This document shows, piece after piece, positions 1,275 to 37,006 of a DNA stretch of 64,000 bases. Source of the DNA: Eledone cirrhosa (Eukaryota). The stretch is taken from contig OZ024746.1 of assembly GCA_964016885.1 (NCBI GenBank), positions 62,496,001-62,560,000 on the forward strand, in the 5' to 3' direction. A model generated the notes under the pieces. That model saw nothing but the letters and a program-made list of their open reading frames with translations, was not told the DNA's origin and searched no databases. Positions within the stretch are counted from its first letter, which is position 1. Each line of letters starts with the position of its first letter. A program made the translations under genes and the position numbers.

Positions 1275-1321
<47 letters not shown>

Positions 1322-1399
1322 TATATATATTTACAAGGTAAATTATATGAGTTGATGTTAAAGCTCTAATGTAATTTTGTCAATATCCACATTGACGAA

Positions 1400-1750
1400 A
1401 AAGGGTTCAGAGATAAATCCAATTAGTATATTTCCAGTCACTGTAGATTTACTAATCACAGAGCATATATAACAAATATAGGATCTCCAAGGCATAGCAA
1501 TATGGCACAATTATTCCACCTCAATTGGCCCTGCTCACTTTAACATTACACCAAAACACATTAAAACAGAAACAAACCCCATAAAGTTCAAGAAGTCTTT
1601 GGACAAATTCCTTCAAGAAATCCCAGATATGTCTCTGTAAACAATAACTCTCTGGGCCATGGTGTTCAAATCCTGATTTGAAAGACTTCGCCAAGTGGTG
1701 CTATTGAGTTAGACATGGCCTGGGCCAATTATGGCCGAAAACTATCAAAG
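1400..1750 (+). mobile_element. CR1/L2-group LINE 3' fragment
   Basis: 1521-1640 translates as SIGPAHFNITPKHIKTETNPIKFKKSLDKFLQEIPD, resembling the CR1-group ORF2 C-terminus. Confidence 0.65.
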
Positions 1751-2061
1751 GGGTGTGTGTGTATATATACGTAACACTTGAAACCATCTATGGAGATTTG
1801 ATTCCAATATCCCTTGGACTCAAGCAAAAGAGACTACAGTTTGCTGGTCACTGTCATTGAGCCAACAAAGAAATCATATCATCTCTCCTTCTGTGCCATC
1901 CCTCTGGATGTGTCTATTCACGAAAACTGTCTTTCCCAGACACCATAGCTCGGGACTCAGGGTTGGACATAAGGAATCTGGGGACAGCAATGCAGGACTG
2001 AGCAGTGTGGAAAGGGATTGTCAAGAGAGTTTGTACTGACCACAGAGGAGTAGTGGAAGAG

Positions 2062-2094
<33 letters not shown>

Positions 2095-2533
2095 GTGCAA
2101 GATCAATGATAATTAAAAAAAACCCAGTAAATTCAACCACCGAGAACACACTACAATGACTGTTGATAGTTTAACACTTAAATTGAAGAAGAAAAACTGT
2201 GTGATTGTGTCAGTATTGGATGTTAAATGATGTGTATGATGATGTTAGTTAGGTATTACATTTTTATTTTTAGTTAAAAATGTTCCCCCTTCCCTTAGTT
2301 ACTAGAAGAAAAATAAAATAGTGATCTGTTATTCCAAAACAATTAGATTTTAGACAGAAAGGAATTAACAGAATTGGTAAAGTTTTATAAATAGATTAAA
2401 ATGAAAGTAATTGATTATATAGATTATTTAGTATGTTCCTTTGAACCTATTAGAACTTATATTTATATATTTGTTCAAATGTGTTGTTCAGCCTTATATA
2501 TATATATATGTGTGTGATATTTAATATAGAAAT

Positions 2534-2584
2534 GATTTCTACAGGACTAGAACTGTTACATTCAAAGGAAATCATCAGGAAATC
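2534..2584 (-). ncRNA. Hammerhead-like motif (second family), degenerate
   Basis: Minus strand reads gatttc-CTGATGA-tttcctttgaat-GTAA-cag-ttctagtc-ctg-TA-gaaatc, with a 6-bp stem I. Confidence 0.5.
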
Positions 2585-2590
2585 CCATAT

Positions 2591-2932
2591 ATCATCATCA
2601 TCATCATCATTTTACGTCCGCTTTTCCCTGCTTGCAAGGGTGGGACGGGAACTGATTCTGGCTTGATTTCTATAGCTGGATGCCCTTCCTAACACCAACC
2701 TCATTTACAGTGAGTGCTGGGTGCTTTTTTGCCGTGGCACCTCCACGACCACTTTGGAGTGGAATGATAGGGACCCCAGTCCCTATCATCTCATTTTTAC
2801 AGCTGAGTAAACTGGAGCAATGTGAAATAAAGTGTCTTGCTCAAGGAAACAACACATCACTCGGTCTGAGAATTGAACTCACAACCTTTCAATTGCAAGG
2901 CCAATGCTCTAACCACTAAGCCATGTGCCTCC

Positions 2933-2933
<1 letters not shown>
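2591..2933 (-). mobile_element. tRNA-derived CORE-SINE with RTE tail (copy 1)
   Basis: Minus strand shows A box TGGCTTAGTGG, B box GTTCAATTC and CORE-like CCTTGAGCAAGACACTT...CTGTAAAAATG. It also has the RTE 5'UTR-like block, a 40-nt tail identical to the LINE end, and (GAT)n. Confidence 0.9.
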
Positions 2934-3020
<87 letters not shown>

Positions 3021-3559
3021 GAGCAGAAGAGAGGGAAAGGGGAAAGAGGTAGTGAAAGGTAGTGGTGAGAGAAATGAAACAAGAGGTGGGAGGGGGGGGG
3101 GGGTTAAAAAGTAGAAGAATGGAATTAAAAAGGAAGATGAAAGACGAGATGGAAGTATGCAGTACAGGTGTGCATGAGTTGTTGCAGGTGTGTGTTTGTG
3201 ATGTCATATAAAACATTAATGGATGTGAAGCTAAAAAAAATAAAGGTAAAGAAAAAAAGGAAAAAAAAACAAAAACAAAAAACAAAAAGAAAGAACGTAA
3301 GGGAAGTCACTCTGCAGTCACTTAACCTGCTAGAAATAGAAACTAAATCTTACATAAATCACAACTGTAGGTCCCAAGAAATATTGTGCTTTTAGATATA
3401 AAATGTCTGATGTGCCATTATAAACGAAAATAAGGGTGCATCAGTGTGGTTGCCTGATTGGCTAGAAATAGAAGTCATATCGCCCTCAAATCACACTGTC
3501 TTAAAAGAATGGAAGGTCATATTAGATATTGTACTTTTCAGTAAACCATGCCAGATGTC

Positions 3560-4010
3560 ATTATCATGATGATGCTGATGATGATGATGATGATGGTAGT
3601 GGGAAGAAGTCGGTGTGGTGGTGATGGTGAGGACAGTAGTTGTGATGGTGGTGATGGTGATGGAGGTGGTGGTGGCAGTGGGTATGGTAGTAGTGGTGGT
3701 GATGGCAGTGGGTATGGTGGTGGTAGCAGTGGGTATGGTGGTGGTGGTAGTGGGGGCAGTGGGTATGGTGGTGGTGGTGGTGGTGATGGCAGTGGGTATG
3801 GTGGTGGTGGTGGTGGTGGTGGTGGTGGTGATGGCAGTGGGTATGGTGGTGGTGATATGGTGGTGGTGGTGGTGGCAGTGGGTATGGTGGTGGTGGTGAT
3901 GGCAGTGGTGATATGGTGGTGGTGGTGGTGGTGGTGGTGGCAGTGGGTATGGTGATGGTGGTTGTGGTGGAAGTGGGTATGGTGGTGGTGGTGGTGATGG
4001 TGGTGGTGAT
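3560..4010. repeat. (GGT)n-derived minisatellite with GGCAGTGGGTAT motif
   Basis: Visible tandem units. Confidence 0.9.
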
Positions 4011-4283
4011 AAAGAGGATCACATTCAAGGTTGGTTATATAATACAACTTGCTGGGTGCAACTTTTACTGACTGACTGATTTGTTTAACCTGATTTGTGT
4101 GTGTATAGAGTGTGTGTATAGAGTGTGTGTATAGTGTGTGGGATGTGTAAACAATGAACAAGAAAGAAAGAGATAGTGAGAGGGAGAGAGGGGGGAGTGT
4201 TAGGCTGCAAGGTACTGTGTGTGTGCGTGTGTGTATATATGTATATACTCACACACGTGTATATGTGTGTGTGTGTGAGTGTA

Positions 4284-4328
<45 letters not shown>

Positions 4329-4606
4329 GTGTATGTTTGTACATAGAGAGACAGAGAGAGATAGTTGTAATGCAGAGCATGGTATATATATATAGTAAAC
4401 TGAGACAGACATATATATATATATATACACACTTGTGTAACACAACTGACTAATTTAACTTGGTGTGTGCATAATGTACAACAGAAATAGGCAGTGACTG
4501 CATGTGTGTGTGGTTGCATATAAGTCTAGTATGCATGTGCATATGAACACCATCACACAGACATAAACATGCACACACAAACAGAATTGCACATGGAATA
4601 GATAGC

Positions 4607-17394: not shown

Positions 17395-20300
17395 CATCAT
17401 CATCATCATCATCATCATCATCATTTTACGTCCGCTTTTCCCTGCTTGCAAGGGTGGGACGGGTCTTATTCAGCACAGCATCTCTCCACTCGTCACGGTC
17501 CCTCGTCATCTCCACCGTGAGCTTCAATGATCTGAGGTCTGTTCTCACCACCTCCGCCCATGTTTTTCGTGGTCTACCTCTACTACGTCTTCCTTCAACT
17601 GGCATTTCCTGGCACTTCTTCACCCATCGGTCATCCTCCATGCGCATCACATGTCCATACCACCTCAGTCTCCTCTCCCGTACACTACATTCTATCCCTC
17701 TCAGACACAGTTTCTCTCTCAACACATTTATGCTGGGTCGTTCACGCACATTTACACTGCACATCCAACGGAGCATGCTTGCCTCATTTCTCTCCAGCCG
17801 TCGCATATCTTCTGCGGTAGCTGCCCATGTCTCACTACCATGCAGCATCGCGCTCCTCACACAGGCATCATACAACCGGCCTTTCGTACGCAGGGAGAAA
17901 CCCTTCTTCGTCAACAGAGGAAGCAGCTCCCTAAACTTCTTCCAACCCGTCCTTATTCTAGATACTATGGCCTCGGAACACCCTCCTCCCATGCTAATCT
18001 GATCTCCTAGGTACCGGAAGCTATCCACCACTTCTATAGCGCCCTCTCGCATTTGAAAAATGTGTCTATCAGTGCGACTTCTACTGTCTAATTTCCCTGT
18101 ACATCTACTGCATACATATTTCTCCCTACCTGTTAGTTTGCCTGCTATCCCGCTACATCTCTTGTGTACCCAGGACCTACATTGTGTGCATTTTATAGAA
18201 TTTATGCCAGTTCCTTTTCTGCATATCGAACATGGCCATTTCCCTGACGGAATCAGGGTTTTGTCCTCTTTTCTACTCATCAACACTTTTGTCTTAGCTA
18301 GATTTACTCTCAGTCCTCTTGCTTCCAACTGCTGTTTCCATAGCCGGAATTTATTCTCTAGCTCCTCTACTGATTCTGCCATAAGAACCAGATCGTCAGC
18401 ATAGAGAAGTTCCCATGGACAGCCAGTCTTAAACTCCTCTGTTATGGCTTGGAGGACTATAATGAACAAGAGCGGGCTGAGGACCGAACCCTGATGTACT
18501 CCTACTTGTATCTGGAATTCCTCACTAAACTCCATTCCTACCCTGACTTTACTGAGAGTACCTCTGTACAAAGTTTGCACTGTCCTTACAAGCCATTCCT
18601 CAACACCCAGCTTCCTTAGGGACCACCAGATGACAGATCGGGGTACCCTATCAAAGGCCTTCTCTAGGTCAACAAAGGCCAAGTATAGTGGCTTATTCTT
18701 CTCTAAGAACCTCTCTTGCATTTGTCTCACCAAGAAGAGGGCATCTGTTGTACTCTTCCCAGGCACAAAACCAAACTGCATCTCATCTAGTTTGACCCTT
18801 TCTCTAATTAGTTGTGCTAAAATCCTTTCTGCCACTTTCATAACCTGATCTATCAGTTTTATACCCCTATAATTGCTCCTCTCCAAAGCATCCCCTTTAC
18901 CTTTGTAGCAATTTATGAGAATACTGCTGCACCAGTCTTTGGGTATGACACCACCATATATAGCCTGATTGATTATGCGTGCAACCAGTTTAGTGCCTCC
19001 GTCCCCTGATGCCTTCAGCATCTCAGCAACTATTCCCGATGGTCCGGCCGCCTTACCATTTTTCATTTCCCTAATCGCCTCTTGGACCCTATATTCGTCA
19101 ATCTCAATAGCTGGTCCCTCTGTCGGATCTACCAAGGGTAATTTCTCTCTCTCCCATTCGTTCTCCACATTCATCAGTCTCTCATAATGGCATTTCCAGG
19201 CCTCCTTTTTCTGGTCATTCGTGACACTAAGTACACCGGCATCATCCCGGACACATTTATCACCAACAACATCCTGATTTGCATTGACACACTGCCTTGC
19301 AATGTGGAACACCGCACGCCTCTGATCTTCCCGTCGCAGAACATTGGCAAACCTCCTACTCTCTGCCTCCCTGCGTGCTAAGTACACCTGACGTCTAGCT
19401 TCTCTCTTAGTGGCTGTATATTCTTCCCTACTCCCACCCTTATTCCAAGCCTTCCATGCTAGTCTTTTGTCTCTAATAGCCTTATCTACACTGCTGTTCC
19501 ACCACCAGGTCACTCTCTGTCTGGTTGGGGCTCTGCTCCAGCCACAAGTTTCATCAGTAGCCTTCAGCAAGTTGTCACGTAAGAACTTCCAGTTATTATC
19601 TATGTCATACGTCTCTAAATCGTCTTCTTTTTCGTCATATACATCTTGAAGGGCTTTCCTAAATTTGAATTTTAGTGAAAGGTCTTTTAGCTTCCAGACC
19701 TTTCTTCTCCACACCTTCCTATATGGCTCATTCCATCTCTTGCTTACTGAGATATCACTAACAACTAACCTATGCTGTGGGGTACATTCTTCCCCAGGGT
19801 ATGCCTTGGTATTAGACACTATCTGCCTGTCCCGCTGCCTAACTAGCAGGAAGTCAATCTGGCTTATGTGCTCACCAGATTTGTAGGTTATTAGGTGATT
19901 GGCAGGTTTCTGGAAGTTTGTGTTGCAAATAGTCAATGTACTTGCATCACAAAATTCAAGAAGTCTCACTCCTTCTTCATTTCTTGAACCGTAACCATGC
20001 CCACCATGTACCCCAGTGTAACCATCCTGGAGCTGTCCAACATGACCATTGAAGTCTCCTGCTAGCATAACGATGTCTCCGTCCTCTGTCATTGTGGTTG
20101 TTTGCAAAAGTTGCTCATAAAAGCAGTCTTTCTCATCTTTGCCTAGGCCTGCTTGGGGAGCATAGACCGAGATGATTGTCAGTAGTCTCCTACCTACAAC
20201 TAATCTAAGCTTAATTATTCGATTACTAACTCGAACTACCTCTATTGTCTTATTGATCCATTTCTCAGCCAGGAAAATGCCTACTCCCCCTAACCCATCA

Positions 20301-20672
20301 TCCTTACCTACCCAGAATAGCTTATAGCTAAGACGCTTGCCTACGACTAGTCTCGCAGAGGCACCTCTCCATCTCACCTCTTGCACGCAGCACACATCCA
20401 CCTGCCTTCTCTCCAGCATCTCCGCTATTTCAGCAGATCTACCTCTGAGAGTGCCAACATTAAGTGTTGCAACTCTGAGATGCGACGTCTTCATATTTTT
20501 TTCTATGCTGTTTTGTTGCTGTGCTGATAAGCTTTTTGGCATTGATACACTGGTTGGATGCCCTTCCTAACACCAGCGCCACTTTACAGCATGGACTGGG
20601 TGCTTTTATTTGTGCCACCAGCACTAGAGAGGATGTCTTACTAGACTCAAGGGCCCTCTCTACCCCTCTACC
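17395..20672 (-). mobile_element. Near or fully full-length RTE LINE with (GAT)n 3' tail
   Basis: (CAT)n on the + strand abuts the stop codon. The 5' UTR contains AAAAGCACCCAG...CTGTAAAG...GGTGTTAGGAAGGGCATCC. The 5' boundary is approximate; CAACATCA near both ends is a weak possible TSD. Confidence 0.9.
17426..20542 (-). CDS. RTE-clade non-LTR retrotransposon ORF (APE endonuclease + reverse transcriptase + C4HC3 finger), 1038 aa, uninterrupted
   Basis: APE motifs NVGTL, CVQEVR, VYAPQ, GDFNGH, IDFLL. RT motifs KAAGPSGI, NYRGIKL, QFGF, FVDLEKAFDRV, GVHQGSVLSPLLF, YADD, FRYLG. RTE-type C-terminus [11 protein letters not shown]...RGRPRKTW. Confidence 0.97.
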   Translation of the reverse strand: MPKSLSAQQQNSIEKNMKTSHLRVATLNVGTLRGRSAEIAEMLERRQVDVCCVQEVRWRGASARLVVGKRLSYKLFWVGKDDGLGGVGIFLAEKWINKTIEVVRVSNRIIKLRLVVGRRLLTIISVYAPQAGLGKDEKDCFYEQLLQTTTMTEDGDIVMLAGDFNGHVGQLQDGYTGVHGGHGYGSRNEEGVRLLEFCDASTLTICNTNFQKPANHLITYKSGEHISQIDFLLVRQRDRQIVSNTKAYPGEECTPQHRLVVSDISVSKRWNEPYRKVWRRKVWKLKDLSLKFKFRKALQDVYDEKEDDLETYDIDNNWKFLRDNLLKATDETCGWSRAPTRQRVTWWWNSSVDKAIRDKRLAWKAWNKGGSREEYTATKREARRQVYLARREAESRRFANVLRREDQRRAVFHIARQCVNANQDVVGDKCVRDDAGVLSVTNDQKKEAWKCHYERLMNVENEWEREKLPLVDPTEGPAIEIDEYRVQEAIREMKNGKAAGPSGIVAEMLKASGDGGTKLVARIINQAIYGGVIPKDWCSSILINCYKGKGDALERSNYRGIKLIDQVMKVAERILAQLIRERVKLDEMQFGFVPGKSTTDALFLVRQMQERFLEKNKPLYLAFVDLEKAFDRVPRSVIWWSLRKLGVEEWLVRTVQTLYRGTLSKVRVGMEFSEEFQIQVGVHQGSVLSPLLFIIVLQAITEEFKTGCPWELLYADDLVLMAESVEELENKFRLWKQQLEARGLRVNLAKTKVLMSRKEDKTLIPSGKWPCSICRKGTGINSIKCTQCRSWVHKRCSGIAGKLTGREKYVCSRCTGKLDSRSRTDRHIFQMREGAIEVVDSFRYLGDQISMGGGCSEAIVSRIRTGWKKFRELLPLLTKKGFSLRTKGRLYDACVRSAMLHGSETWAATAEDMRRLERNEASMLRWMCSVNVRERPSINVLREKLCLRGIECSVRERRLRWYGHVMRMEDDRWVKKCQEMPVEGRRSRGRPRKTWAEVVRTDLRSLKLTVEMTRDRDEWRDAVLNKTRPTLASREKRT

Positions 20673-29762: not shown

Positions 29763-30311
29763 ACTAGATCATCCTTGGTAAGGAAAACATAAGGAACCAT
29801 TGCATAATAATAAAGAATGGATCTTCAACAGAAGGTCAATAACTCATTAGGATCACAGGGTTAACCATACAAATCCCCAGATCTAACAAGGAGCTATTTG
29901 TGACATGGGTTCCAACAATGTAGCACAAAAATACTGAATTATATTTTAAAAAACACAAACAGAAATTCCAGTCTTTATTGAATAAAGAAGCTCTTAATTT
30001 TTTGTAGTTTTAATTATATTCATAAGATATTAAATATATGCACAAAGTGTGCCAAAATATATTTTATTTACTGTAAAGTGTTTCCACATTCCCTTCTCCA
30101 ATAATACCAAGTCAAAAAGGAGGAACATCCACAGAACAGCAAGGATGACACCATACAATTCATGGTACCTCAAAAACAGACAATAGTTATGGCTTTATAT
30201 ATGATTATCCTGGATTGAATCGGGGGCAACCACAGTAAGTAAGGTACTCAATATATAGCAGAGTATAAATATCTAATATAGATATGGCTTCTACAGGACT
30301 AGAACTGTTTC

Positions 30312-30358
30312 CTTCCTGATGATTTCTTCCAAATGAAACAGTTCTAGTCCTGTAGAAG
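30312..30358 (+). ncRNA. Hammerhead-like motif (second family), core intact, stem II weak
   Basis: cttc-CTGATGA-tttcttccaaat-GAAA-cag-ttctagtc-ctg-TA-gaag. Confidence 0.55.
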
Positions 30359-30524
30359 CCATTTCTATATTAAATATATATATATATATAGTAATAATAA
30401 AAATGTGAAGAGTAAAATCCAAAGAGGGCTCGATAAGTTTCAGAAGATCCTGTTAAGAAAGCAGCGATTCTTTGTTTAAACTTTAATCTGTTATTTTAAT
30501 AAATATATATATATATGTAAACAT

Positions 30525-31205: not shown

Positions 31206-32204
31206 TTACACTAAATTCTTGTGGCTTTCAGTCAATAAAAGGTGCTTTCTAAAAGAAGGAAAGTAGGAAAAGCAAAAAAAAAAAGTAAATTAGGAAAGAA
31301 ATAAAAATAAATAAACATGTAAGTAAATAAATAACAAATGATATTTAAGCTATAGTAAATAAATATAATAAATAATGAAAATAAATGAATAAATAAAATG
31401 AAATAAAAATCTTATTATGCTGGGTAAAAATGAAAATAAGAAATATATAAAAAATATAAGGAAATTGAATTTTTCTAATAGAAGGAATCAAATTTCCACA
31501 AGTGTGTTCTGTTCGCTGACATCCTTTAGCACTTGGCAGCCATGTAAATCTTTTCTTTAATTCAATCTTCAAAAGCCAAAAATATTCATGGCTGCAACTT
31601 TTAGTGAAAAAAAAAAGAAAGAAATGGTGCGAGAGAGAGAGAGAGACAGAGAGAGAGGGGGTATGAGGGGAGAGAGAGGGAGAGAGAGATAGGGGTATGA
31701 GGTGAGGGAAAGAGAGGGAGTAAAAGAGAGAGAGAGAGATGGGGGGGGGGTATGAGGGAGAAAGGGAGAGAGTGAGAAGGAAGAAGGAAAGAAGGAAGGA
31801 AATAAAATGCATGGAGTCAACTGTCGTGTGGTATTAAATCTGATGAACTTGGATTTCTGTAGTGAATTATGTGTGCACATACACATGCATACATACACAT
31901 ACATGCGTGAGTTTGTAATATATGTGTGTGTGTGTGGGGGGGGGGGTGTATTTGTAGCCACATACAGGTGTATGTGTGTAACATATGTACAACTGGCTGA
32001 CACCTGAAGTTCACATGGAGTCAGAAGCCAAAATAATCAAGAGTTAAAAAAAAAAAATACAAAAAACCACAAGTAAGCATCAAAGCTGAGACAGCATGTT
32101 GACTGTCTCTTGCTCTAAATCTACTTAAAAAACAGTTAGTTTCACATTGCCAACATATATTAAATGAACTGTATCTGAATGCAGCTTAAGTAATAACAAA
32201 TATA

Positions 32205-32415
32205 ATGATTGTTTCGACTTTTAGCACAAAGCCAGCAATTTGAAGGGATGAGAGGGAAAGTCGATTAGATTGAACCCCGGTGTATTACTGGTGCTTTATT
32301 TTATTGATTTGATCCCATAAGGATAAAAAGCAAAGCCGACCTCGGCAGGATTTGAACTCAGAACTAAAAGGGCCATAACTATATTCTGCAAAGCATGTTG
32401 TCTGATGCTTTACAG
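32205..32415 (-). mobile_element. Deu/Nin-domain SINE
   Basis: Reverse complement of the same core. Further copies at about 14090-14170, 15090-15210, 15960-16060, 17030-17225, 21810-21950, 22090-22160, 27590-27690 and 58015-58195. Confidence 0.72.
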
Positions 32416-32451
32416 GTAATATAATTACTACATCCAATGTAATATCATTGT

Positions 32452-32663
32452 TTAACCCTTTAGCATTTAAACCAGCCATTCCCGGCGAGAATTCTCTCGT
32501 TTTTCTGCTCAAACTGGCCGTAACTTGCCTTTCATAACGACTTATAAGTATTGTTCTCAAAATAAATAATATCAAAATCTCATAGATTCGATATTGTGAG
32601 ATAAAGTCTTTACTGTGAAAATACAATAGTAAATATAGAGTAATGGGACTACTAAAGGGTTAA
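32452..32663. mobile_element. MITE family A
   Basis: TTAACCCTTTAG...CTAAAGGGTTAA. Confidence 0.82.
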
Positions 32664-32898
32664 AATGTAATTACAGATAGATAGGAAGACAGACATATAT
32701 AGAGATAGGAAGACACATATATATATAGAGAGAGATAGAGAGAGAGAGAGAGGGGGGGGATAGATAAATAGATAAACAGATAGAAACAGTGAGAAAGAGA
32801 TAATCAGTTTAACAGCTGCTTTATTGTTGGGGGGGGGGGGGGGAAGAGAGATCATTTAATGGGAAATAACTCATGTTAGCCAAGGTCATAAATCTAGA

Positions 32899-33152
32899 TT
32901 AACCCTTTCATTATCATATTTCTAATGAAAGGTACTACCTTCGATTTAAAAATTTTTTTTTAAATATTCAAGAATTTTGAGTGATTTAGTAATATAACTT
33001 TCCCATTATTAAGTTAGTGTTTAGAACATGACAACAATTATTACATAAAATTATAATGGAAAGCTTTTAGATAAATATAAACTCTTTAAAATAAGCAATT
33101 TTGTATTGTAGAAACAGGGCGAGTTTCAAGCAGTTTAATATCAAATAAGTGA
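32899..33152. mobile_element. Older TTAA-type MITE, family B
   Basis: Starts TTAACCCTTTCATTATCATATTTC. Relatives lie at about 20705-20935, 23850-24220, 53362-54212 (split by an RTE) and 56314-56390. Confidence 0.6.
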
Positions 33153-33844
33153 TATTGTACTGAATGCTACACACACACACACAAAGACACACACAATAAT
33201 AATAATAAAAATTCTATGTAGAATATAAAATGTGATTATTTCTTCATGTTTGGGGACTGAGCTCTTTGGGATGGCTGGATGAGAGTTGGGGGGAATATGA
33301 AACTTCTAGTCCTAAAGCCACTGGTACAGTTTCACAGCTTGATAAATTATACTTAAGTCTATCCATGTATTTGAGTTTTGCTTTTCTCGTTTATATCCAG
33401 CAGTAGAAATCATACTAAACAAAAGGTTTGGAAGACTTTTCAACTGTGTCAAAGACTAGACAGCTTCCCGAGTATTGGTGTCATGATAAAATGCACTTGG
33501 TAGAGTGCGGGAACATATGTCAGGCCTCTGACGCCCTTGAATGTCATAAACACTGGTTGAACACTGCCACTCTGTGATGACATATCTAAAACTCAATGGC
33601 AGGGAGAATGGACGTTTATATGTTCATTTTACCATGATGGAATAGCTTAGACAGGAAGGTTTGAGATATTGTTTTACAGATGTATATACCGTTCCAGATA
33701 CCAACAATTAGTCTTACAACACACATAGATACAGTATACCTATTCTAAAAACTGAGGTACATACAGCAAATATATATATATATATATATATTCATATGGA
33801 ATCATATGAATGACAAATGAAACAGTTCTAGTCAAGGAGAAGTC

Positions 33845-33884
<40 letters not shown>

Positions 33885-33899
33885 CCTGTCCTATGAGTT

Positions 33900-33981
33900 T
33901 GTTCCCTGACGAGTTCAAAACTTGAGATTTTATCCTTAATAGGATATCTCAAAACACGAACAAAAACCGAGGGTAGAGACA
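33900..33981 (+). ncRNA. Type I hammerhead ribozyme motif, copy 1 (GAAA mutated to AAAA)
   Basis: tgttcc-CTGACGA-gttc...gaac-AAAA-accgaggg-TA-gagaca. Confidence 0.65.
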
Positions 33982-34575
33982 TTATCCTGGTAAGAGTGTA
34001 TGCATCTCTTCTAACTCTAATTTTATACCTAATTGTGTATGGTTGACGGTATATTTAGTCGATTCCCACGTGCTGTTGAAATGTTGGGTAAATATTCTAT
34101 TGCGGTTGGCCGCGAAGAGGCTGCTGTCGTTTATTTATCAAATATTTCTTCATAAGAGCCTTTTAATCTTATAGCCTGGTTTAATTGATTTTTTATGTGG
34201 TTAATTATGATAATTGGGAGAGGAAATGGTGTATATATATTATCAAATGATTCTATGGACATACTCTATGATATATTGCTCTGATTATTTAATTTATTAA
34301 TTCTTCATTGAGCCACATCGTGAATGGTTGCCAAAACATATATATCTGTGACTTTGTTTAGTTTGTGTATATGTAAATCTTTATATTTAATAATCTCCCA
34401 TTAGGTTGAGATGCAATTTGGGCAATATTGGACTACGCTTTCTAGCAACCAGCCCACTCGCCGTAAGCAACCAATCACATTTTTCTAACTTGACCACTGC
34501 CACGTCACGATTCTTAGCCATTTTGAATCTGTTTCTGGCGGGGATCGCTTTGGAAAATTACCTGTCCTATGAGTT

Positions 34576-34657
34576 TGTTTCTTGACGAGTTCGAAACTCG
34601 AGATTTTATCCTTAATAGGATATCTCAAAACACGAACGAAACCCAAGGGTAGAGACA
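34576..34657 (+). ncRNA. Type I hammerhead ribozyme motif, copy 2 (CTGA mutated to TTGA)
   Basis: tgtttc-TTGACGA-gttcg...cgaac-GAAA-ccc-aa-ggg-TA-gagaca; stems I, II and III all pair. Confidence 0.7.
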
Positions 34658-34998
34658 TTATCCTGGTAAGAGTGTATGCATTTCTTCTAACTCTAATTTT
34701 ATACCTAATTGTGTATGGTTGACGGTATATTTAGTCAATTCCCACGTGCTGTTGAAATGTTGTGTAAATATTCTATTACAGTCGGCCGCGAAGAGGCTGC
34801 TGTCGTTTATTTATCAAATATTTCTTCATAGGAGCCTTTTAATCTTATAGTCTGGTCTAATTGATTTTTTATGTGGTTAATTATGATAATTGGGAGAGGA
34901 AATGGTGTATATATATTATCAAATGATTCTATGGACATACTTTATGATATATATCTCTAACGTAACGATATATTATCACTACATTATTGATTACCTGA

Positions 34999-35034
<36 letters not shown>

Positions 35035-35248
35035 AAAAGACCTCTACAGGACTAGAACTGTTTCATTTGCCATTCATATGATTACATATGAATGAAACAG
35101 TTCTAGTCCTGTAAAAGTCATTTCTTGTATATAATAAAGATGCTTGTACTCTATCAACGTATTGAGTACATTTTTATGTATGGTAACCCCCCCCCCCCAA
35201 CTCTGGAATCTAAATTACACACACACACACACATACACATATATATAC

Positions 35249-35283
<35 letters not shown>

Positions 35284-35529
35284 CCACATATAGACACATA
35301 CGTATGCGTACACACACACACACACACACACACAATCAAGGTTAATAAACCATATCGCTGTAGCCCACCTTTCATCAATTAGATTTGTGCTTAATTACTA
35401 TATTCAATGGTTATTTAAACATATGCAAGGAATCAATACCTCATGTAAACTAATTTATTGTTAAGGTTGCACATAAACATAAGAAAACTTGACATGGTAT
35501 CTGTTCCATCAGTGTCACACATACATATA

Positions 35530-35880
35530 CACACACTCATCGACATTCTCTATCTATTACACACACACATACACACACACTCATGGACATATTCTATCTC
35601 TCTTACACACACACATACACACACACTCATGGACATATTCTATCTCTCTTACACACACACACACACTCATGGACATATTCTATCTCTCTTACACACATAC
35701 ACACACACTCATGGACATATTCTATCTCTCTTACACACACACATACACACACACTCATGGACATATTCTATCTCTCTTACACACACTCATGTACATTCTC
35801 TCTCTCTCTCTTACACACACTCATGGGCTTAGCCTCTCTCTCACACACACACACACACACACAACCATATACTTTCTCTC

Positions 35881-35932
<52 letters not shown>

Positions 35933-36305
35933 TACTCTCTCTCCACACACACACACATATATATATATACACACACTCTCTCTCTCCACACACACACATG
36001 TATATATATATACACACACACACACTCTCTCTCCACACACACACACATGTATATATATATATATATATATACACACACATACTCTCTCTCCACACACACA
36101 CATGTATATGTATATATATATATATACACACACAGACACATACTCTCTCTCTCTCTCTTACACACACATATATACATACTATCTTTCCCCTTCACACACA
36201 CACATATACTCTCTCACACTCATACATATACTCTCTCACACACACACACACATTCATACAAACATATACTCTCACACACACATACAAACACACTTTCTCT
36301 CTCAC
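35530..36305. repeat. (CA)-spaced minisatellite CTCATGGACATATTCTATCTCTCTT plus compound CA/TA/CT tract
   Basis: Visible tandem units. Confidence 0.9.
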
Positions 36306-36488
36306 AGACACAAGAGTGCGTTATAAGATAAATGGAACGGAACTCCCTGATGCGGAAATAAAAAAAAAACTATTTAATGCTAAGAAAATGGAACTGAGGA
36401 TTAAAAACAAACAAAAGAAATGTAAATAAATTTTGATTTATTTACATTTAAATATATATTTTAGAGAAGGAAGAGGAGGAGGAACTTT

Positions 36489-36553
<65 letters not shown>

Positions 36554-36664
36554 CAACATTAGAGAAAACAAAGTCTGAAGAAGATAAAAAAAAAATGAAA
36601 CAAGTCAATGAAAGAAAGTAAAAAATTTAGAAAAAGTAAAAATGATTATCAGTAAAAAAAAAAT

Positions 36665-37006
36665 GAAAGAAGAAGGTAGAAGAGGTAGAAGAAGAAGAAG
36701 AAGAAGAAGAAGAAGAAGAAGAAGAAGAAGGCAAAGAAGAAGAAGAAGAAGAAGGCGAAGAAGGTGAAGAAGAAGAAGGCGAAGAAGAAGAAGGCGAAGA
36801 AGAAGAAAAAGAAGAAAAAGAAGAAAAAGAAGAAGGCGAAGAAGGCGAAGAAGAAAAAGAAGAAGGCGAAGAAGAAAAAGAAGAAGGCGAAGAAGAAAAA
36901 GAAGAAGGCGAAGAAGAAGGTGAAGAAGAAGAAGGCGAAGAAGAAGAAGAAGAAGAAGAAGAAGAAGAAGAAGAAGAAGAAGAAGAAGAAGAAGAAGAAG
37001 AAGAAA
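36665..37006. repeat. (GAA)n with GGC/AAA interruptions
   Basis: Seen directly. Confidence 0.95.

Follow-up and report, generated by a model that had tools for sequence, protein, structure and literature searches.

The window analysed here is a 64,000-nt stretch of the Eledone cirrhosa genome (assembly GCA_964016885.1, contig OZ024746.1, positions 62,496,001 to 62,560,000, forward strand), and it contains two direct repeats (33881–34276 and 34557–34952) that align without gaps over 396 nt at an offset of 676 nt, with 17 substitutions, and are thus 95.7% identical around a short core. The two spaced copies reported in a preliminary description made from the letters alone are therefore real, but the LTR-like pairing implied there gives way to a partial tandem of a 676-nt unit, whose positions we number q1–676. 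The features of the locus are:

33848–33882, no strand: left (TA)n target
33881–34952, + strand: whole insertion, a 5'-truncated partial tandem of 1.6 units of the 676-nt non-coding unit
33881–34556, + strand: single complete unit, q1–676
33895–33981, + strand: type I hammerhead copy 1, predicted dead, predicted cut after 33975
34277–34389, + strand: optional tail of ~110 nt to 'site B' (about 34386–34389), with a predicted hairpin at 34336–34374
34471–34524, + strand: promoter-like motifs CCAATCA (start 34471), CACGTCAC (34501) and GCCATTTT (34517), of putative function
34571–34657, + strand: type I hammerhead copy 2, predicted weak or dead, predicted cut after 34651
34571–34575 (copy 1: 33895–33899), + strand: GAGTT, 5' strand of a predicted pseudoknot, covarying with the stem II internal loop
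34595–34599 (copy 1: 33919–33923), + strand: AACTC, predicted pseudoknot partner in the stem II internal loop
34947–34952 (internal copy 34271–34276), + strand: ATATAT, q391–396, fixed 3' end 'site A', the putative main start of reverse transcription
35004–35032, no strand: right (TA)n target, with 51 bases (34953–35003) between element and run

The unit is low in GC (36%), and no frame of at least 30 aa lies wholly inside the spacer on the + strand, in keeping with its earlier characterization as free of long ORFs; the longest frames overlapping the element (104 and 81 aa) are both on the − strand. The three promoter-like motifs were recovered where they had been reported. The element lacks TG...CA ends, and its (TA)n target hides any target-site duplication.

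Several neighboring features were recorded alongside. The 51 bases that separate site A from the (TA)n run on the right are possibly the tail of another insertion of the Penelope-like element (PLE) type. A second, unrelated type I hammerhead family has an intact core at ~30315–30360 (+), with an inverted arm alongside (window 30280–30366); its 3' halves flank the element on both sides (33805–33850 and 35040–35125), and it recurs beside (TA)n in many of the loci we fetched. The window also holds a 1,046-codon open frame (17429–20566, − strand), whose N-terminus we take to resemble an RTE-type LINE endonuclease.

Genomic copies and insertion scars

Searching the 3.0-Gb genome with the 676-nt unit returned 5,325 first-look candidates, 40 of which were scored, figures that are lower bounds and not copy numbers; subfamily queries returned 878 to 2,358 candidates apiece. 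The copies are located on many chromosomes and form a multi-copy family, so that the objection raised beforehand, of a sequence present only once, fails. There are at least five subfamilies, 68–99% alike, and 30 loci fetched through a palindromic-stem-III pattern are mostly 68–86% identical to the window unit with an unchanged layout, unit length and both ends being retained at this divergence; the fifth subfamily, at ~70% identity, has a 689-nt unit. Head-to-tail full units of 674–693 nt occur in five subfamilies, and arrays of 2–3 units exist (loci L025 and L012). Two subfamilies contain many copies that are 98–99% alike across 161 nt, and activity was therefore fairly recent.

Three contig sets (type unspecified, one sample) contain many variant copies and no splice-like or RNA-end joint. 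Several subfamilies retain a splice-donor-like G/GTRWG immediately downstream of stem I (33987–33995); we rejected an intron reading (GT at 33990, AG near 34405), for which the spliced-junction pattern gave 0 matches and the AG is lost in the L051 subfamily. Six listed copies of one subfamily, with identical matched motifs, lie within 335 kb (G000 C1:217347104–217680708) and are probably a segmental duplication. Weak matches to q458–509 at two loci (L098 and L103) turned out to be simple repeats.

Copies have a variable 5' end and a 3' end that is fixed and nearly always touches (TA)n. Position 33881, which the preliminary description took as the start of the repeat, is an arbitrary 5' truncation point, given the variable 5' ends among copies. 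The fixed 3' ends fall at two places, site A (q396) and site B (about q506–509), separated by 101–126 nt depending on the subfamily. We surveyed ends at 119 loci picked solely by similarity next to site A, dropping 12 (the window, query loci, overlaps, and two met earlier) to leave 107; 70 of these are non-inverted insertions, ending at A in 60 cases, at B in 6, and elsewhere in 4, and two of the 70 carry short site-B remnants at their 5' junction. Insertions with an inverted 5' arm also number 70 across all sets, and 58 could be scored, the other 12 being obscured by later insertions or locus edges. In every scorable case (58/58; 19 plus 39 more) the tail to site B is present on exactly one arm, although an internal microsatellite blurs the tail end in 4–5 of the 58; L154, a tail-to-tail pair of separate insertions, was excluded.

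Judged from the window alone, with its near-identical direct repeats around a short core, the locus could be an LTR-type retrozyme or TRIM (396-nt LTRs, 280-nt core) with Gypsy as its driver, or alternatively a tandem duplication confined to the locus, a pair of readings we regard as hardly credible. Local duplication does not sit with copies on many chromosomes. Plant LTR retrozymes do share the 600–1000-nt size class and, at the window locus, the two hammerheads in direct repeats, but as described in PMC7229834 and the 2026 preprint cited below they differ by a type III ribozyme, true LTRs, PBS/PPT, a 4-bp TSD, and a Gypsy driver, and do not fit here: our ribozyme is type I, TG...CA ends are missing, inverted arms and tandems are present, and the LTR reading is refuted by the scattered 5' ends.

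The scars instead match those of PLEs, for which a 30–40-bp tail on one inverted arm has been described as a signature (PMC3846280, PMC8557442) and explained in vitro by two internal reverse-transcription start sites, with both target strands extended (PMC11167929). Every component of the PLE insertion signature is present in the family, namely 5' truncation, partial tandem, inverted arm, one-arm tail, and microsatellite target. The likeness to EN+ Neptune-type PLEs as they are portrayed in these papers and in PMC4209133 covers (TA)n targeting, 5' truncation, partial tandems, and the inverted 5' arm, and also the optional one-arm tail and a palindromic helix III; unlike those elements, the family has no ORF, and its tail is 101–126 nt rather than 30–40. 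We found no comparable count of one-arm tails in the PLE literature. The one-arm tail suggests separate priming sites for the two target strands, A for one of them and B for its partner. We conclude that this is very probably a non-autonomous family mobilized by PLEs.

Hammerhead fold and predicted pseudoknot

Each unit carries, in order, stem I, CUGACGA, a stem II of ~49 nt, GAAA, stem III, and a GUA triplet. The type I core, stems, triplet, and both predicted cuts lie at the positions first proposed, and so do the two different core lesions, G to A at 33962 in copy 1 (G12A) and C to T at 34582 in copy 2 (C3U). That list was incomplete for copy 1, where four more lesions had been missed (33904 in stem I, 33917 in stem II, 33923 in the internal loop, and 33966 in stem III). 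Given the established requirements of the hammerhead core, both ribozymes in the window are probably weak or dead. Stem III, initially given as acc/ggt, is present in the fuller form A-CCC-NN-GGG-U in the window subfamily and as A-CCAUGG-U in others, and the usual fold of stem II starts from a 5-bp base, opens into an internal loop of ~6x6, and closes with an apical hairpin whose sequence varies.

The complete core given by the consensus of the two damaged copies is found intact across genomic copies, both as pattern matches and in extracted motifs. An exact pattern combining core, stem II base, and stem III has 78 matches in the genome, and a sister pattern with the shorter palindromic stem III has 548, against 0 for the reversed control of the first and 0 for the control of the second; the hammerhead is therefore not a chance arrangement. 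Among 104 extracted motifs, each core position is kept in 99–103 and core plus stem III are fully intact in 65, with conservation biased upward by the roughly one third of motifs that come from pattern-selected loci. In 30 aligned motifs, 92% of the cells pair, against 32–52% in slid controls, and both-sided changes occur at 6 of 18 base pairs, values that are inflated by shared descent and by stem letters fixed in the search patterns. Stems I and II covary, in answer to the covariation check proposed with the preliminary description, while stem III is nearly invariant and hence uninformative. The predicted hammerhead fold is thus backed by covariation. When isolated motifs are folded without constraints, the hammerhead is not always the result, and the whole-unit circular fold (−170 kcal/mol) compares with −144 ± 7 for 30 mononucleotide shuffles, a control too weak for the value to count in favor of the fold.

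The suggested test with Rfam hammerhead models came out negative: there is no match across 32000–37000, nor at any of five intact-core loci (5/5), probably because of the long stem II. Rfam-based counts consequently miss hundreds of intact motifs in genomes of this kind. Among cephalopods in print, 235 hammerheads from Rfam are listed, with no analysis, for the giant squid (PMC6962438), and the main text of the Octopus vulgaris repeat annotation contains none of the words hammerhead, ribozyme, or retrozyme (PMC13282606). At least four more type I families with a long stem II were seen near PLE loci (L105; L107; L109/L110; L051/L093/L103/L106), with palindromic stem III sequences that include TATATA, TGCGCA, and CCACTGG.

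Directly 5' of stem I lies GAGYN, the complement of NRCTC on the 5' side of the internal loop in stem II. Of the 104 motifs, 3 lack an anchor; in the remaining 101, position 4 of this pairing is T-A in 55, C-G in 24, T-G in 20, and unpaired in 2, and position 5 is T-A in 60, A-T in 5, G-C in 3, and T-T in 33; the pairing is also retained in the fifth subfamily despite a different stem II base sequence. From these few independent changes we predict a pseudoknot that would serve as the contact between stem I and stem II. Pseudoknots have been reported in about 40% of hammerheads, of all three types (PMC3088659), and the examples described there by Perreault et al. in 2011 likewise join stem I and stem II regions by Watson–Crick pairs in a predicted tertiary contact; here, unlike those, the internal loop of a long stem II pairs with the strand 5' of stem I, within a mobile animal repeat. 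We did not find this internal-loop form in the text passages reached by our searches of the hammerhead literature.

Resident Penelope-like elements and the retrozyme class

A genome search for the GIY-YIG domain returned 10,596 candidates, and 50 stretches around such matches contain several PLE families with reverse transcriptase (RT) motifs, GIY-YIG, and a CX4CX2C linker that would fit the Neptune type as described in PMC8557442. One element, L041, has the arrangement pLTR-ORF-pLTR with RT and GIY-YIG in a 938-codon open frame (L041:2509–5322, −); another, L043, has a stop-to-stop open frame of 1,096 aa (1275–4562, +). All named relatives of the L041 protein are either from bivalves or from entries carrying a bivalve-symbiont label. 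Both pLTRs of L041 contain a hammerhead of the U3-A8 variant, which is already in print (PMC4209133). The full-sized hammerhead of our family, with its C3-G8 core, contrasts with the short U3-A8 form in resident L041 and L047 types. In the pLTRs of the L047-type PLEs (L039, L053, L059, L099, and others), the U3-A8 hammerhead has GCAA in place of GAAA wherever the motif was found, an unusual core variant.

The resident PLEs terminate at an internal TATAT within (TA)n, several of them with a tail of ~35–45 nt, and L043 obeys the same one-arm tail rule as our family; in one PLE family, the tail folds as an AU/GU hairpin weakly resembling the hairpin before site B. No sequence shared between the unit and the resident PLEs was found by BLAST and nhmmer in the 50 stretches, drawn from the 10,596 GIY-YIG candidates genome-wide, these searches returning only family copies in neighboring (TA)n. 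The preliminary description had also asked whether copies adjoin a related PLE ORF, and none lies beside any copy examined. Candidate partners at L002, L015, L039/L091, L051, L133, and L190 were rejected as separate insertions in a shared (TA)n or as unjoined to the unit.

These results bear on whether the copies could be truncated pseudo-LTR debris of an as yet unfound autonomous PLE rather than a self-propagating family. The published features of pLTRs include a hammerhead, promoter motifs, a tail, and (TA)n targeting (PMC4209133, PMC8557442), and our check of PLEs covered only ~50 stretches around 150 listed GIY-YIG matches. At the loci examined, however, what follows in copies longer than 396 nt is the same 280 nt of non-coding sequence, and after it a further unit, never an ORF; no long ORF lies within or joined to the units examined, no PLE ORF runs into a unit among the family loci examined, and the head-to-tail full units in five subfamilies also speak against debris, which we consider very improbable.

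As far as DNA can tell, the family has the makeup of an animal non-LTR retrozyme: a non-coding unit arranged head to tail, one type I hammerhead in each, many copies, and no true LTRs. It resembles the animal non-LTR retrozymes described by Cervera and de la Pena in 2020 (PMC7229834) and by Li, Clavereau and Pollet in 2026 (bioRxiv 10.64898/2026.07.22.740005) in being non-coding and low in GC, with one type I hammerhead per unit, and in coexisting with PLEs. It differs from them in the size of the unit (676 nt, against 170–400 nt for invertebrate retrozymes and 51–972 in a vertebrate survey), in consisting mostly of dispersed, 5'-truncated 0.3–2-mers rather than arrays, in its stem II of ~49 nt with an internal loop, and in that the 50 stretches yielded no resident PLE with a pLTR homologous to the unit. 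The retrozyme class and its link to PLEs are already in print, the preprint arguing that animal retrozymes are non-autonomous PLE derivatives; together with the insertion scars, this makes one thing of the two labels first offered for the locus, retrozyme and non-autonomous PLE. What was observed in the preliminary description is hence confirmed, and its interpretation is supported, copy number, core, and covariation having each failed to refute it at the DNA level.

Template RNA and proposed cycle

From a linear monomer released by cuts at both hammerheads, reverse transcription that starts at site A could yield no more than ~300 nt. Of the 107 surveyed insertions, however, 71 cross the predicted cut seamlessly, which means that circles or uncleaved multimers often served as the template. 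Insertions reach past the promoter region in 45 of the 107 and are longer than one unit in 24. The 5' ends are not evenly spread, 12 of 107 lying 0–10 nt after the predicted cut where 1.8 are expected (Poisson 5e-7; scan null P = 0.005), with 8 against 1.2 expected among non-inverted copies. This pile-up suggests cleaved linear RNA, although, since it sits mostly at +4 to +10, at TA-like spots, and not at 0, other possible causes are RT stalling where stem I is folded and TA microhomology. A further 8 ends lie near GCCATTTT, the putative start site, against 2.2 expected (p = 0.002, for an interval chosen post hoc), which suggests that primary, uncleaved linear transcripts serve as templates too.

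Such ends favor, to a degree, a PLE passenger whose template is always linear, consisting of uncleaved multimers and some cleaved pieces, with a hammerhead that trims ends or acts late and forms no circle. Unprocessed RNA was the dominant substrate of an anole PLE in vitro, where cleavage was dispensable for insertion (PMC11167929), and the 2–3-unit arrays at L025 and L012 are possible sources of multimers. Against this, each linear round should shorten the element, yet many insertions pass the promoter region or exceed a unit, 5' ends are scattered, and the unit has persisted through subfamilies that are 68–99% alike. Divergence between repeats inside a locus is about that to the nearest other locus, which fits repeats that were identical at insertion but is no guide to whether they came from a circle or from a homogeneous array. 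We judge an exclusively linear template unlikely and favor a mixed pool that includes circles, because a linear-only cycle should lose the upstream promoter every round. Circular RNAs have been demonstrated for coral, mussel, and axolotl retrozymes (PMC7229834), and rolling-circle copying has been proposed to regenerate sources of more than one unit (PMC4209133). Against this reading stand the dispensable cleavage of the anole PLE and the report that 8 of 9 Xenopus retrozymes showed no cleavage in vitro (bioRxiv 10.64898/2026.07.22.740005).

Taking the mixed pool with circles as our working reading, we lean towards the window element being a decayed, 5'-truncated copy of a 676-nt retrozyme, inserted into (TA)n by the RT-endonuclease of PLEs resident in this genome from a template that was in part circular RNA made by the predicted hammerheads. 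In such a cycle, a source copy of more than one unit would be transcribed from the motifs at 34471–34524; successive hammerheads would cut at GUA, and the released monomer of ~676 nt would be ligated into a circle. A PLE enzyme, to judge by the scars, would then nick both (TA)n strands, priming one of them at site A and its partner at site B, which lies ~110 nt farther downstream in the RNA. The products of this step would be the scars seen in the DNA, with fixed 3' ends, variable 5' ends, seamless passage of the cut site, and a tail on a single inverted arm, and those longer than one unit may restore source copies.

Only tentatively do we go further and propose that a two-headed PLE enzyme always primes both (TA)n strands, one at A and the other at B, so that the tail would mark an obligatory asymmetric second priming, and that a 676-nt circle is the template, its capacity for cleavage maintained by a hammerhead that escapes Rfam and has a hitherto undescribed pseudoknot involving the internal loop. 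If true, the family would provide a small, protein-free reporter RNA for the PLE mechanism, its scars would record the PLE reaction in vivo, and its ribozyme would be a new structural variant of type I hammerheads.

Most worth following are the pseudoknotted ribozyme with its long stem II, the one-arm rule of the long tail, and the pile-up of 5' ends. The one-arm rule bears on the open question of the origin of PLE tails, the pile-up on whether hammerhead cleavage matters in vivo, and the insertion counts on whether templates are circles. The young subfamilies and the open PLE frames, among which L041 with both of its pLTRs is a candidate for biochemistry, make the questions of tail, cleavage, and template testable in vitro, and the family adds evidence, read directly from DNA, on the machinery that mobilizes an animal retrozyme.
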